Part shown: positions 1 through 2,466 of the stretch, piece by piece
Layout: every line of letters starts with the position of its first letter
Numbering within the stretch: position 1 is the first letter of the stretch
Source of the DNA: Candidatus Bipolaricaulia bacterium
GTDB lineage: Bacteria; Bipolaricaulota; Bipolaricaulia; JBHIAT01
NCBI GenBank assembly: GCA_046758705.1
Contig: JBHIAT010000040.1
Span: forward strand, 1-23,789
Reading direction: 5' to 3'
Length of the DNA: 23,789 bases
Position numbers and translations under genes: made by a program
Notes under the pieces: model-generated
The model's database searches: none
Told to the model about the DNA's origin: nothing
What the model saw: the letters and a program-made list of their open reading frames with translations, nothing else

Positions 1-109
1 CGGACGATCTGGGCGATCTCACCGAGGGAGAAGCCTTGATGAGACAGGAGGACCAGGTGAGCGCACTGGCGGACGCGCCGCTTGGGATGGTGGTGGTACG
101 CTTGGCTCT

Positions 110-598
110 TTGGGATTAATCGACATCATCGACCCGGTGAGTTGGACCGTGGTGCATTGGATTGATGTGGGAAAGACTAGCCAGGGACACCCACTGACCC
201 GTGAGGGCATCAGTTACTTCAATGGCCAGGTCTATCTTCTGCCCGAAGACGGCCCCAACTCGGAGGTGTTGATCTATCAACCGGCTCTCACCCCTGTACC
301 GCCTACAACAACACTTGCACCTCCAAAACCCATTGTGATAGACACAGACATGGCTGTTGATGACTGGGTGGCCATTCTTTACCTTTTGCAACGATCCGAC
401 GTAGCTGTAGAAGCGATTACTGTGACTGTGACTGGGGCGAAGAGGTGTTCTTGGACACCCTCAATGGCCGAGTTCCTTAGAAAGTTAGATGTCCTGTTGG
501 CCGAGGAACTGTCGATGGCTGGTGCCGGCGAAGCGACCCGTAAGCTGAGGAACGGAGGATGTAGCCGGTCGCTCTTACAGAAAGCCTTTTCGTTTTAG
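110..598 (+). pseudogene. Probable gene remnant: unknown domain + Pro/Thr linker + N-terminal ~38 aa of an inosine/uridine-preferring nucleoside hydrolase, truncated
   Basis: KPIVIDTDMAVDDWVAILYLLQRSDVAVEAITV (nt ~326-439) matches the IU-NH N-terminal DxDxxxDD motif. Similarity stops at ~440. The frame is open from nt 2, so the 5' end may lie outside the window. The 3' tail overlaps relE convergently. Confidence 0.5.
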
Positions 599-883
599 CT
601 CCTTGTAAAACTCGTCATCACCACGTTTCCCTATCCAATAGATGATAACCAGCTTCTTGTCATCATTGACTTCATAGTAGATCCGGTATTCCCCGCTATC
701 CACGCGATAGCCTTCGCCGATCGGTTTGCAATCTTGAGGACGGGGTTCGGACTGCAGGGAGAAGACCTTCAGGGTTATCTGCCTATAGACTTTTGCAGGG
801 TATCTCTGTGGGTTTCCAAGCTCTTTAATAACTCGATCATCTACCAAGAACCTATATGGTCCCCTGGCCTTCGCTTTCCTCAC
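575..883 (-). CDS. relE: Type II toxin, RelE/ParE family
   Basis: 102 aa basic protein with PRPQDCK..GYRVDSGEYRIYYEVND..LVIIYWIGKR. GTG start with GAGG upstream. Overlaps the 3' end of the antitoxin gene. Confidence 0.9.
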   Translation of the reverse strand: MRKAKARGPYRFLVDDRVIKELGNPQRYPAKVYRQITLKVFSLQSEPRPQDCKPIGEGYRVDSGEYRIYYEVNDDKKLVIIYWIGKRGDDEFYKELKRKGFL

Positions 884-1157
884 TCAGCTCTAACCTCTCT
901 CCATAAAGCCGCTCGTATTGATTGACAAGTTCTTCAAAAGGGACAAGACTCTTGGAGGACTCCTTCGCCGCTTTAAGCAGAGCAGCATCGCGTTCATCCT
1001 CAAACCTCTCCAACACGCGAAGGTCCTCCAGCGAGATGAGAGCAGCGACCGGCTTGTCGCGCCGCTCGATGATCACTCGCTCCTTGAGATAAATCACACG
1101 AGCGAGCAGATCTCCTATCTGATTCCTAAGTGCGGTCGCTCCGACTTTGACAGTCAT
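852..1157 (-). CDS. Type II antitoxin, Phd/YefM family
   Basis: N-terminus VGATALRNQIGDLLARV..ERVIIERRDKPVAALISLEDL is the Phd/YefM signature. Acidic C-terminus. SD AGGGGGAAGG upstream. Lies upstream of the toxin. Confidence 0.9.
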   Translation of the reverse strand: MTVKVGATALRNQIGDLLARVIYLKERVIIERRDKPVAALISLEDLRVLERFEDERDAALLKAAKESSKSLVPFEELVNQYERLYGERLELSEESEGQGTI

Positions 1158-1260: not shown

Positions 1261-1289
1261 TTGAAGCGATCTGAAGACTGTGCTATAAT
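1261..1289 (+). promoter_or_regulatory. Promoter of the tRNA/SRP RNA operon
   Basis: TTGAAG (1261-1266), 17 nt, TATAAT (1284-1289) with extended -10 TG; 50 nt upstream of the first tRNA. Confidence 0.75.
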
Positions 1290-1339: not shown

Positions 1340-1426
1340 GGAGGGATGACCGAATGGCAAGGAGCCGGTCTCGAAAACCGGTAAGGCCGCAAGGCCCTCT
1401 GGGTTCGAATCCCAGTCCCTCCGCCA
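1340..1426 (+). tRNA. tRNA-Ser(CGA)
   Basis: Acceptor GGAGGGA/TCCCTCC, G discriminator, encoded CCA. Anticodon arm CCGGT-CTCGAAA-ACCGG. Long variable arm GGCC-GCAA-GGCC. T arm CTGGG-TTCGAAT-CCCAG. Confidence 0.97.
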
Positions 1427-1434
1427 AGATAAGA

Positions 1435-1520
1435 CAGTTAAAAGGTTGGAAAGTTAAAAAGTTAGCAAGTTAAAAGACTTTAAAACTTTTCAACTTTTGG
1501 AACTTTAAACTTTTAAACTG
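1435..1520. repeat. AT-rich inverted array of 8-nt units (NNAAAGTT ... AACTTTNN), empty copy of the element flanking the four-helix-bundle gene
   Basis: CAGTT-AAAAGGTT-GGAAAGTT-AAAAAGTT-AGCAAGTT-AAAAGACTTT-AAAACTTT-TCAACTTT-TGGAACTT-TAAACTTT-TAAACTG. Ends are CAGTT/AACTG. Nt 1445-1490 match 1716-1761 at 45/46 positions. Confidence 0.9.
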
Positions 1521-1528
1521 ACTTGCTT

Positions 1529-1604
1529 GCGCCTGTAGCTCAGGGGACAGAGCGTCGGACTGCGGATCCGAAGGCCGGAGGTTCAAATCCTCCCAGGCGT
1601 ACCA
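1529..1604 (+). tRNA. tRNA-Arg(GCG)
   Basis: Acceptor GCGCCTG/CAGGCGT + A + CCA. D arm GCTC/GAGC. Anticodon arm TCGGA-CTGCGGA-TCCGA. T arm GGAGG-TTCAAAT-CCTCC. Confidence 0.96.
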
Positions 1605-1611
1605 GTGACTT

Positions 1612-1702
1612 GGAGGGGTGGGTGAGCGGTCGAAGCCACCGGTCTGGAGAACCGGTGAAGTCCTTGTGGCTTCCGTGGGTTCAAATCCCACCCCCTCCGC
1701 CA
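1612..1702 (+). tRNA. tRNA-Ser(GGA)
   Basis: Acceptor GGAGGGG/CCCCTCC + G + CCA. Anticodon arm CCGGT-CTGGAGA-ACCGG. Long variable arm GAAGTC/GGCTTC. T arm GTGGG-TTCAAAT-CCCAC. Confidence 0.96.
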
Positions 1703-1767
1703 AAACAGTTGGAAAGTTGGAAAGTTAAAAAGTTAGCAAGTTAAAAGATTTTAAAACTTTTAAACTG
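1702..1767. repeat. Left repeat arm of the four-helix-bundle cassette (8-nt periodic units)
   Basis: AAAACAGTT-GGAAAGTT-GGAAAGTT-AAAAAGTT-AGCAAGTT-AAAAGATTTTAAAACTTTTAAACTG. Confidence 0.9.
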
Positions 1768-1771
1768 AATT

Positions 1772-2152
1772 GTGGCCAAGATAGGAAGGTTCGAGGAGAT
1801 CGAGGGATGGAAACTATCGAGAGAGTTGGTAAGAATGGTGTATAACCTGACTCAAGGAACTCCCTTTGCCCAAGATTATGGATTAAAGGATCAGATTCAA
1901 AGAGCGGCTGTATCGACCATGTCTAACATCGCTGAAGGGTTCGAGAGGAACTCTACGAAAGAGTTCATCCAATCCCTTTATGTCGCTCGCGGTTCTGTAG
2001 CAGAGGTCAGAAGTTTATTGTATGTGGCTTCCGATCTGGGATATATTGCACCTGAGGACTTTGCTGAGGTTTTTAACCAAGCGGAGGAAACGTCGAAAAC
2101 GATCTTTGGATTCATCAAATATTTATCGGCCAAAGACTTTAAAACTTTTTGA
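1772..2152 (+). CDS. Four helix bundle protein (23S rRNA intervening-sequence protein / S23-like, Avd-related fold)
   Basis: 126 aa with the family pattern RFEEIEGW..SRELV..VY..T....DYGLKDQIQRAAVSTMSNIAEGFER.STKEF...LYVARGSVAEVRSLLYVA.DLGYI. GTG start with no obvious SD. Confidence 0.92.
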   Translation: MAKIGRFEEIEGWKLSRELVRMVYNLTQGTPFAQDYGLKDQIQRAAVSTMSNIAEGFERNSTKEFIQSLYVARGSVAEVRSLLYVASDLGYIAPEDFAEVFNQAEETSKTIFGFIKYLSAKDFKTF

Positions 2153-2190
2153 CTTTTGAACTTTTGAACTTTTGAACTTTTAACTGTTTT
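2132..2190. repeat. Right repeat arm of the four-helix-bundle cassette (inverted 8-nt units)
   Basis: AAAGACTTTAAAACTTTT-TGA-(CTTTTGAA)x3-CTTTTAACTGTTTT. The terminal AACTGTTTT is the exact reverse complement of AAAACAGTT at 1702-1710. Confidence 0.9.
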
Positions 2191-2192
2191 AT

Positions 2193-2466
2193 AGGCCTGT
2201 GCTAGGTGGGGAGCTAGCGGTACCCTGTACTCGCAAACCGCTATAGCGAGACCGAACGGCGCCTGAGAGGTAGTGCCATAGGGGACTGCCTCGGATAAGC
2301 GGCGATGACGGTTGAGCCCTCTACGGCGAACGTCCATGAACCCCGTCAGGCCCGGAAGGGAGCAGCGGTAAGTGAACCTCTTCGGGTGTTAGAGGATTTC
2401 TTGGCCTGAGCTGGCTGTCCGGGTTCCGCCCGGTGGTACGCCCCGAAGGTGACCTCGCACAGGCCT
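2193..2466 (+). ncRNA. ffs: Signal recognition particle RNA, large (Alu-domain) bacterial type
   Basis: The 5' AGGCCTGTGC pairs with the 3' GCACAGGCCT. The 5' Alu-like GCTAGGTGGGGAGCTAGCGGTACCCTGTACTCGCAAACCGCTATAGCGAG resembles Bacillus scRNA. Helix-8 motif GTCAGGCCCGGAAGGGAGCAGC. Followed by a T-tract. Confidence 0.93.

Follow-up and report, generated by a model that had tools for sequence, protein, structure and literature searches.

A four-helix-bundle gene cassette with periodic inverted arms between tRNA-Ser and signal recognition particle RNA in Candidatus Bipolaricaulia

How does a protein gene come to lie inside an operon of stable RNAs, and how could the RNAs on its two sides still be made? 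The question is raised by 23,789 nt of a Candidatus Bipolaricaulia bacterium (contig JBHIAT010000040.1, positions 1-23,789 of the forward strand; hereafter the window, that is, the whole stretch analysed, its genome being G000), in which a gene for a four-helix-bundle protein of family PF05635, framed by inverted arrays of 8-nt repeats, fills the space between tRNA-Ser(gga) and the RNA of the signal recognition particle (SRP). Members of PF05635 have been recognised in intervening sequences (IVS) of 23S rRNA since the 1990s, and to our knowledge the family has no known function. A preliminary description of the locus took the gene and its repeat arms for a self-contained element living in a stable-RNA precursor outside rRNA; as a whole, this interpretation was partly supported by the present analysis. 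Our preferred reading, to which we give a probability of roughly 0.55, is that of an IVS-type PF05635 cassette at the tRNA-Ser/SRP junction, whose stem is probably cut by the host RNase III.

A discrete insert at the tRNA-Ser/SRP RNA junction

The SRP RNA was located in 132 of 151 genomes of the class, and the sequence upstream of it was read for 111 loci from 110 genomes. A same-strand tRNA-Ser precedes the SRP RNA at 96 of these loci; the other 15 gave no tRNA, nine of them having less than 320 nt of upstream sequence. The junction is empty, with a spacer of at most 7 nt, at 70 of the 96 loci. Two spacers of 8-35 nt contain no gene, 13 of 81-290 nt no detectable gene, and two of 353-354 nt a partial PF05635 gene. 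Eight spacers of 446-511 nt carry a PF05635 gene (G000 and seven genomes of family f5, among them G004, in which the gene is broken by stops), and a single one of 936 nt has other content. Empty junctions consist of CCA, 1-7 nt and C(C/T)(G/A)TGC, typically CCA-GGC-CCGTGC or a close variant, and the cassette of filled junctions sits between CCA and GGC; no target-site duplication was visible when filled and empty junctions were compared. Genus g5 alone has five full, four remnant and three empty sites, which therefore implies repeated gain or precise loss at exactly this junction. Indeed, the junctions compared show a discrete cassette inserted at the tRNA-Ser(GGA)/SRP RNA junction. The presence/absence comparison of this spacer that the preliminary description had proposed thus returned filled, partial, remnant and empty states, and the 70 empty junctions, together with two operons of relatives that are near-gapless apart from one 74-nt spacer (see below), uphold its claim of a self-contained insert in a stable-RNA operon outside rRNA.

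The junctions of family f5 comprise full genes, broken genes and short remnants. A remnant of 255 nt in G052 still encodes GIEAWQEAR from the N-terminus of the gene, and one of 105 nt in G012 folds into one hairpin. Read as a series, these junctions show the decay of the cassette in situ, by internal deletion, into gene-less hairpins.

The limits of the insert were derived from the SRP RNA, whose Rfam match (165.1 bits, cut-off 60) is extended on both sides when its ends are read from the sequence: GGCCTGTGC (2194-2202) pairs with GCACAGGCC (2457-2465), downstream of which there is a run of T (2471-2476). Since GGC at 2194-2196 pairs with 2463-2465, the SRP RNA should start near 2194, and the insert therefore covers 491 nt (Table 1). 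With this start, the terminal repeat of the cassette ends 3 nt before the SRP RNA, not 2 nt as first described. In most genomes of the class (for instance at L089 of G097, L119 of G113 and L109 of G089) the CCA of tRNA-Ser directly adjoins the SRP RNA. The apparent 3-nt spacer, GGC, pairs with the 3' end of the SRP RNA, so that a single cleavage should yield the 3' terminus of the tRNA and the 5' terminus of the SRP RNA together.

Two genomes of family f8 possess the same four-RNA operon, in which tRNA-Ser(cga), tRNA-Arg(gcg), tRNA-Ser(gga) and SRP RNA are separated by 0 or 74 nt (0 in G097, 74 in G019), 6 or 7 nt, and 3 nt. A single TTGACG-17-TATAAT stands before tRNA-Ser(cga) in both, at the place matching the promoter-like site of the window (1261-1289). 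With gaps so short, one transcript must yield all four RNAs in these genomes. Because relatives share this near-gapless operon with its single promoter, co-transcription is likely the ancestral state.

The junction also seems to accept other inserts. At L084 (G079, family f7), the 936-nt spacer between tRNA-Ser(gct) and SRP RNA holds about 900 nt of other sequence, apparently coding on the opposite strand, and still ends with a promoter-like TTGACG-17-TAGACT. Among read-derived contigs from four DNA runs of one study, the joints that skip 1700-2197 in runs X1 and X4 have sides of just 27 nt and fit other organisms of the community with empty junctions; we therefore do not count them as a polymorphism of this strain.

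Table 1. Coordinates of the stable-RNA operon and of its insert in the window (HMM, hidden Markov model; ORF, open reading frame; TRF, Tandem Repeats Finder)
Feature	Position	Strand	Basis
Promoter-like site of the stable-RNA operon: TTGAAG, 17 nt, TATAAT; TG precedes the second hexamer	1261..1289	+	promoter scan
tRNA-Ser(cga)	1340..1426	+	tRNA call, Rfam tRNA match
Gene-less hairpin, same arm family; 8-nt arrays 1436-1475 and 1477-1519	1427..1528	+	fold, TRF
tRNA-Arg(gcg)	1529..1604	+	tRNA call
tRNA-Ser(gga), CCA encoded	1612..1702	+	tRNA call
Inserted cassette, 491 nt, bounded by CCA and SRP-initial GGC	1703..2193	+	empty junctions in relatives
Left arm: CAGTT, then NNAAAGTT units	1702..1760	+	sequence, TRF, duplex prediction
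Hairpin apex and short right-arm piece ending AAACTG; first 18 nt AAAGATTTTAAAACTTTT directly repeated at 2132-2149	1744..1767	+	repeat comparison, sequence reading
Four-helix-bundle protein gene (PF05635/TIGR02436), GTG start	1772..2152	+	ORF, HMMs
Right arm: AACTTTTN units ending AACTG; contains weak promoter-like TTGAAC-18-TTAACT (2156-2185)	2132..2190	+	TRF, duplex prediction, relaxed pattern
Large SRP RNA	2194..2465	+	Rfam match 2197-2462, terminal pairing

Directly upstream of the promoter region of this operon, on the minus strand of the window (575-1157), lie a ParE-like toxin gene (22 bits, just below the cut-off of 23) and a Phd/YefM antitoxin gene (40.4 bits), which overlap by about 30 nt.

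Arms, stem and protein of the cassette

The ends of the cassette form a perfect 9-bp terminal inverted repeat (AAAACAGTT at 1702-1710 and AACTGTTTT at 2182-2190), exactly as first described, and TRF delimits 8-nt tandem arrays at 1707-1747 and 2143-2185. When 1700-2196 was folded, as had also been proposed, the ends paired and the ORF was looped out (minimum free energy -140.2 kcal/mol, z -3.2, one of 100 shuffles as good). Taken alone, the arms are predicted to form 51 bp between 1702-1760 and 2132-2190 at -41.9 kcal/mol (40 A-U, 7 G-C and 4 G-U pairs), versus just -12.4 kcal/mol for the competing local hairpin of the left end. The periodically mismatched helix expected to loop out the ORF is thus found in the prediction, with a length of 51 bp in place of the anticipated 45 or so. 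An 18-nt direct repeat, AAAGAYTTTAAAACTTTT, is present on both sides of the ORF (1744-1761 and 2132-2149), so that a single deletion between its copies would convert the cassette into a gene-less hairpin.

The gene encodes 126 amino acids, and its last six codons and TGA lie within the right arm. The protein matches PF05635 with 120.3 bits (cut-off 33.8), covering 105 of the 106 profile positions, and TIGR02436 with 117.1 bits (cut-off 24). Residues 8-105 also match, at the level of sequence only, the solved four-helix-bundle protein XCC0516 (PDB 2gsc, five chains; E 8.9e-20), which is described as a homopentamer in the available part of PMC4990558. The conserved motif of the family is given as GxxRxxxSxxxNxxE (PMC3936711, available part); its R44, S48, N52 and E55 are present and invariant in our 8-row alignment, and its first position is Q41, not G, in all eight rows. 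The ratio of nonsynonymous to synonymous substitution rates (dN/dS) is 0.09-0.35 in six of ten homologue pairs, the other four being saturated at synonymous sites and giving no ratio. A variant about 95% alike, found in run X4 of the same study, carries the gene, and by our own reading third codon positions account for five of its six listed changes. These substitution patterns indicate that the protein is under purifying selection.

In the protein tree, the window copy is sister to the copy of L008, which lies in a tRNA-Ile/tRNA-Ala spacer (support 93/82), and both join six f5 copies from the SRP site in one clade (support 90/86) that looks like a lineage of cassettes living in stable-RNA spacers. 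The kinship with Avd of diversity-generating retroelements claimed at first has weak HMM matches in its favour, both of them below cut-off (bAvd, 19.5 bits for a cut-off of 40; DivGenRetAVD, NF033474, 20.5 for a cut-off of 80).

G000 contains a second PF05635 copy, at C23:4996-5488 (L002 1100-2300, minus strand), with an in-frame TAA or a frameshift near codon 101. Its arms are made of unrelated 9-nt units, the right array being much longer, with more than 10 units of the GAACCCCAC/GAACCCGAT type. According to the motif scan and TRF, this arm type (GGGTTCGTG) is confined to contig C23, where it forms the two arms and a similar 9-nt array about 2 kb off; arm-only copies are therefore not a trait of every cassette. 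A similar 9-nt array lies at C23:2995-3037, and a weak protein-fragment match was noted at L002 402-485.

We then considered the flanks of other PF05635 genes, using an arm test in which the inverted-repeat score (Smith-Waterman) had to be at least 40 and above all eight shuffles. A PF05635 gene was detected in 19 of 41 class genomes, and 18 of the 29 class loci pass the test. The 80 best loci of named genomes, drawn from many phyla, were then scored; of the 79 that could be, 49 pass, versus 4 of 142 control windows shifted by 800 nt. The expectation that homologous genes would have such arms thus held both in the class and across phyla. The arms are locus-specific, being built of GAGTC, GTGAGG, GTCCGTA, GGGTTCAT and other units, and in an all-against-all duplex matrix the cognate right arm was the best partner in 13 of 28 rows. 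Of 114 loci considered, 83 have a tandem array on the upstream side and 89 have one downstream; on each side, 53 arrays have a period of 7 nt, 14-15 one of 8 nt and 5-6 one of 9 nt. Since 7 nt is the commonest period, the 8-nt period of the window is a minority form. The period is the same on both sides at 57 of the 71 loci with two arrays. A tRNA lies within 200 nt of just 3 of the 79 cross-phyla loci, which makes a stable-RNA site unusual for the family. Considering flank scores and periods together, these counts place the cassette in a widespread class whose members each have periodic arms specific to their locus.

Dispersed arms and the question of DNA mobility

A gene-less copy of the arms, missed in the preliminary description, fills the tRNA-Ser(cga)/tRNA-Arg spacer 275 nt upstream of the cassette (1427-1528). 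It folds at -27.1 kcal/mol (z -3.46, none of 200 shuffles as good), and its segments 1431-1495 and 1473-1519 are 91% and 85% identical to 1702-1766 and 2132-2178 of the cassette, respectively. The equivalent spacer is absent (0 nt) from G097, and G019 has 74 nt of unrelated sequence there. A 17-nt stretch composed of the tRNA-Ser(cga) 3' end and the start of this hairpin (1423-1439, GCCAAGATAAGACAGTT) shares 82% identity with the initial codons of the ORF (1775-1791, GCCAAGATAGGAAGGTT), a likeness which may be due to chance or be a trace of the joining of the ORF to an arm.

A genome scan of G000 detected 27 arm loci (25 beyond the two of the window), nine of which are full hairpins and the rest single arms. 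Eight of the 18 same-strand tRNA-tRNA spacers of at most 250 nt contain an arm element, and no more than 30 nt separate 13 of the 27 arm loci from a tRNA. All arm copies examined share the termini CAGTT...AACTG. Moreover, hairpins on C116, C158 (two) and C151 have the non-palindromic apex AAAATCCGTTAAC in common, which indicates copying and not independent growth. The scan thus shows arm-only copies dispersed through the tRNA spacers of G000.

Partnerless arms also occur in intergenic gaps of protein operons (C3:14879, C10:16894, C25:5754, C42:5189, C50:99, C79:7212, C95:9181, C100:8412, C110:4221, C151:1250 and C200:509). Single arms often begin within a few bases of a stop codon (TAA...CAGTT), ahead of the ribosome-binding site of the next gene; the C79 arm has the opposite sense and lies between two ilvB-/ilvN-like genes. 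A tRNA-spacer hairpin at C3:18581-18695 has normal arms and a 45-nt non-repeat loop, which may be the last remnant of a lost insert.

Outside G000, the motif AACTN{3,4}AACTN{3,4}AACT was counted 44 and 52 times in two f4 genomes that have the sister cassette in a tRNA-Ile/tRNA-Ala spacer, once in G068 and never in two compact f8 genomes, its reversed control being absent from all five. An arm was found within 10 nt of a tRNA in 6 of the 20 AACT-motif places read. In G003, six near-identical hairpins (L240-L245; AGTTTGTCAGTTGATCAGTT... / ...AACTGTCAAACTG) are located within a longer repeated segment (flank ...gggtcaagagatcgttaccagg...), which suggests that they are carried by a larger dispersed element.

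This dispersal can also be read at the DNA level, the cassette resembling a miniature inverted-repeat transposable element (MITE) whose arms are terminal inverted repeats copying into stable-RNA spacers, with the gene as cargo or helper and the RNA stem as a by-product. The perfect 9-bp terminal repeat and the termini common to all copies would fit such an element, as would the 27 arm loci and the occupation of 8 of 18 tRNA-tRNA spacers, the shared apex on three contigs, the uneven AACT-motif counts of the f4, G068 and f8 genomes, the arms close to tRNAs in 6 of 20 places, and the empty, filled and remnant sites side by side in genus g5. We nevertheless hold this explanation to be rather unlikely. 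The cassette has no transposase gene within it or nearby and shows no visible target-site duplication; the arms of other family members are, furthermore, unrelated in sequence yet complementary, which suggests that pairing, and not a recombinase site, is under selection. DNA mobility is moreover compatible with the RNA model, since it concerns the spread of the cassette and not its function.

Among more specific candidates, the idea of a repetitive extragenic palindromic (REP) element with its REP-associated tyrosine transposase (RAYT) was rejected, the six matches of G000 to the Y1 transposase family (PF01797, Y1_Tnp) being on C27, C207, C257, C204, C43 and C5, which carry none of the 27 arm loci. 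A retroelement was rejected likewise, reverse transcriptase (PF00078, RVT_1) giving 0 matches in the G000 genome (93.9% complete); the initial statement that neither a transposase nor a reverse transcriptase gene is nearby was accordingly borne out. Searches limited to the Y1 and reverse transcriptase families thus found no candidate transposase linked to the arms. Precise gain and loss at a single site could be due to homologous exchange through the highly conserved RNA genes on either side, a mechanism that cannot account for movement between different spacers.

Proposed processing of the stem, possible transcription signals and known systems

According to our preferred reading, an almost gapless ancestral operon with one promoter (tRNA-Ser, tRNA-Arg, tRNA-Ser, SRP RNA) would have received the cassette at its last junction. 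The arms would pair in any transcript running from the tRNA into the right arm, and the stem of about 51 bp would loop out the ORF and place the tRNA 3' end and the SRP 5' end side by side, as in insert-free relatives. The host RNase III would then cut the stem, separating the two stable-RNA precursors and freeing an mRNA of about 440 nt for the protein, whose A/U-rich leader, devoid of a Shine-Dalgarno sequence, would derive from the left arm. RNase III is judged the likeliest enzyme because its gene is encoded in G000 (C112:752-1117) and because it excises the rRNA form in Coxiella, with a cut at the first of several tandem heptamers (PMC4990558, available part); what the preliminary description said of the excision of PF05635 rRNA intervening sequences by RNase III is indeed in print there. 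By this analogy, cleavage of the stem by RNase III, separating the precursors and releasing the ORF RNA, is most likely. We likewise infer the co-transcription through the cassette, the translation of its gene and its way of spread.

At C112:598-1510 (L141), the RNase III gene of G000 lies between tRNA-Gln(ttg) and an AAAGTT-type hairpin (1358-1432) adjoining tRNA-Arg(cct). With this layout, the enzyme proposed to cut the stems would itself be encoded within such a tRNA unit.

Several points weigh against the RNase III reading. No Shine-Dalgarno sequence is visible before the ORF, and the Coxiella protein S23p has been argued not to be translated (PMC4990558, available part). A-U pairs make up 78% of the stem, which is interrupted by a mismatch every 7-8 bp and is assumed to be suitable for RNase III. 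Some orthologous cassettes are without distinctly cognate arms (at L102, for example, the cognate arm ranks 7 of 28). Finally, 20 of the 24 long spacers of relatives have a sigma-70-type promoter motif immediately ahead of the SRP RNA, which may thus have its own promoter there, and the window holds the degenerate TTGAAC-18-TTAACT at the position of this promoter in relatives.

The arms could instead be transcription signals, the right arm acting as promoter of the downstream stable RNA, the hairpin as terminator or insulator for the upstream one, and the gene being the 3' tail of the tRNA operon transcript. At f5/f7 loci (L030, L102, L103, L095 and others), the last 60 nt before the SRP RNA include TTGACN, 16-18 nt, and TA(A/C/G)ACT or TATGCT. 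In general form (TTGACN-16..18-TANNNT), this motif ends 9-12 nt before the Rfam-defined SRP start in 20 of the 24 long spacers of f5/f7, for a background of 29 matches in 94.7 kb of upstream sequence. It accompanies tRNA-SRP distances of at least 81 nt, overlaps the right arm where the gene is present and persists in remnants that lost the gene; in G000, many hairpins end with AACTG followed by TTTT. However, the best match of the window has no A at the second position of its -10 hexamer, and 0 promoter-like and 0 terminator-like sites were reported in the scan of the cassette (1702-2196). The stems, long, A-U rich and mismatched, are unlike intrinsic terminators, and the arms of most other family members lie between protein genes, unlike promoters. 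We therefore suggest, from the position of the motif, that the right-arm region of relatives has probably become the SRP RNA gene's own promoter, that such a role is doubtful in the window, and that a purely transcriptional role of arms and gene is distinctly improbable. The single co-transcript assumed in the preliminary description agrees with the near-gapless, single-promoter operons of G097 and G019, and the SRP promoter motif of the 20 long spacers offers an alternative to it.

A bolder proposal, which we put forward as a long shot, gives the protein a role in spread. The four-helix-bundle protein would recognise the arm units as a ring-shaped multimer like XCC0516, each subunit reading a single short unit of RNA or single-stranded DNA, and would thereby cause segments bounded by arms to be copied or retained in stable-RNA spacers. 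The cassette would then be a transposase-free, protein-guided selfish element, the gene-less hairpins its non-autonomous derivatives, and the 23S rRNA IVS one of its habitats. Lastly, the notion of an ordinary resident gene flanked by repeats of chance or slippage origin with no shared role, for which it can be said that short tandem repeats are common in intergenic DNA and that TRF finds 334 arrays of period 6-11 in G000, is contradicted by the arm counts (49 of 79 loci versus 4 of 142 controls), the equal periods (57 of 71 loci), the 70 empty sites among 96 and the fold of the cassette (z -3.2), and its probability is negligible.

The locus thus presents a gene-plus-stem unit at a stable-RNA junction other than rRNA, where the site is empty, filled, half-decayed or reduced to a bare hairpin across one bacterial class. 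This series argues that the unit is a discrete cassette that comes and goes and is not tied to rRNA, and that gene-less spacer hairpins can be relics or offspring of cassettes. The IVS gene consequently looks like a general, movable cassette of stable-RNA operons. Should the arms indeed restore the processing of the separated RNAs, this would explain how an insert is tolerated inside essential RNA genes. The short operon of three tRNAs, cassette and SRP RNA is also a simple experimental system for arm processing and protein binding.

In the literature, in which subscription journals were sparsely covered, we found no paper linking PF05635 genes outside rRNA with periodic inverted arms or with tRNA/SRP RNA spacers. 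The cassette can nevertheless be compared with several known systems. Like Avd of diversity-generating retroelements, its product is a four-helix-bundle protein, distantly related at most as judged from weak, sub-threshold HMM matches; unlike Avd systems, it scores 20.5 for a cut-off of 80, its genome has no reverse transcriptase found by search, and there is no pair of template and variable repeats. With MITEs and with REP sequences or bacterial interspersed mosaic elements (BIME), it shares short, palindromic, dispersed intergenic copies with conserved termini, a gene-carrying form existing beside many gene-less ones. It differs from them by the lack of an associated transposase (Y1 searched) or RAYT and of a visible target duplication, by arms made of a tandem 6-nt core plus 2 variable bases, and by a strong preference for tRNA flanks.

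PF05635 genes have also been reported as intruders in cas loci, where 18 were counted, for example between cmr3 and cmr2 (Zhang, Doak and Ye 2013, PMC3936711, available part). Both there and here, a small intruder gene lies between unrelated co-transcribed genes. The flanks of the window gene are stable-RNA genes, unlike those of the cas-locus genes, and the available part of PMC3936711 makes no mention of flanking arms.

The closest relatives are the ORF-bearing IVS of 23S rRNA, such as those of Coxiella burnetii (S23p, in helix 45) and, as cited in PMC4990558, Leptospira. These encode a PF05635 protein whose ORF occupies the loop of a long stem of inverted flanks, lie inside a stable-RNA transcription unit, and are sporadic among close relatives at a fixed site, all of which applies to the cassette with its predicted stem. 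Short tandem repeats are likewise present in the 5' flank of the Coxiella IVS, as three to four heptamers GACAGAT of which RNase III cuts at the first (PMC4990558, available part). Unlike this IVS, the window has 8-nt arrays of five to six units on both sides, and its protein is under purifying selection, whereas the Coxiella ORF was argued to be decaying and untranslated (PMC4990558, available part). Moreover, the site is the tRNA-Ser(gga)/SRP RNA junction and not an rRNA helix, arm-only copies fill other tRNA spacers, and excision is a step that we infer. The cassette therefore has the architecture of an IVS (a predicted stem of inverted flanks, a looped ORF and a sporadically occupied site) but not the rRNA location by which IVS are defined.

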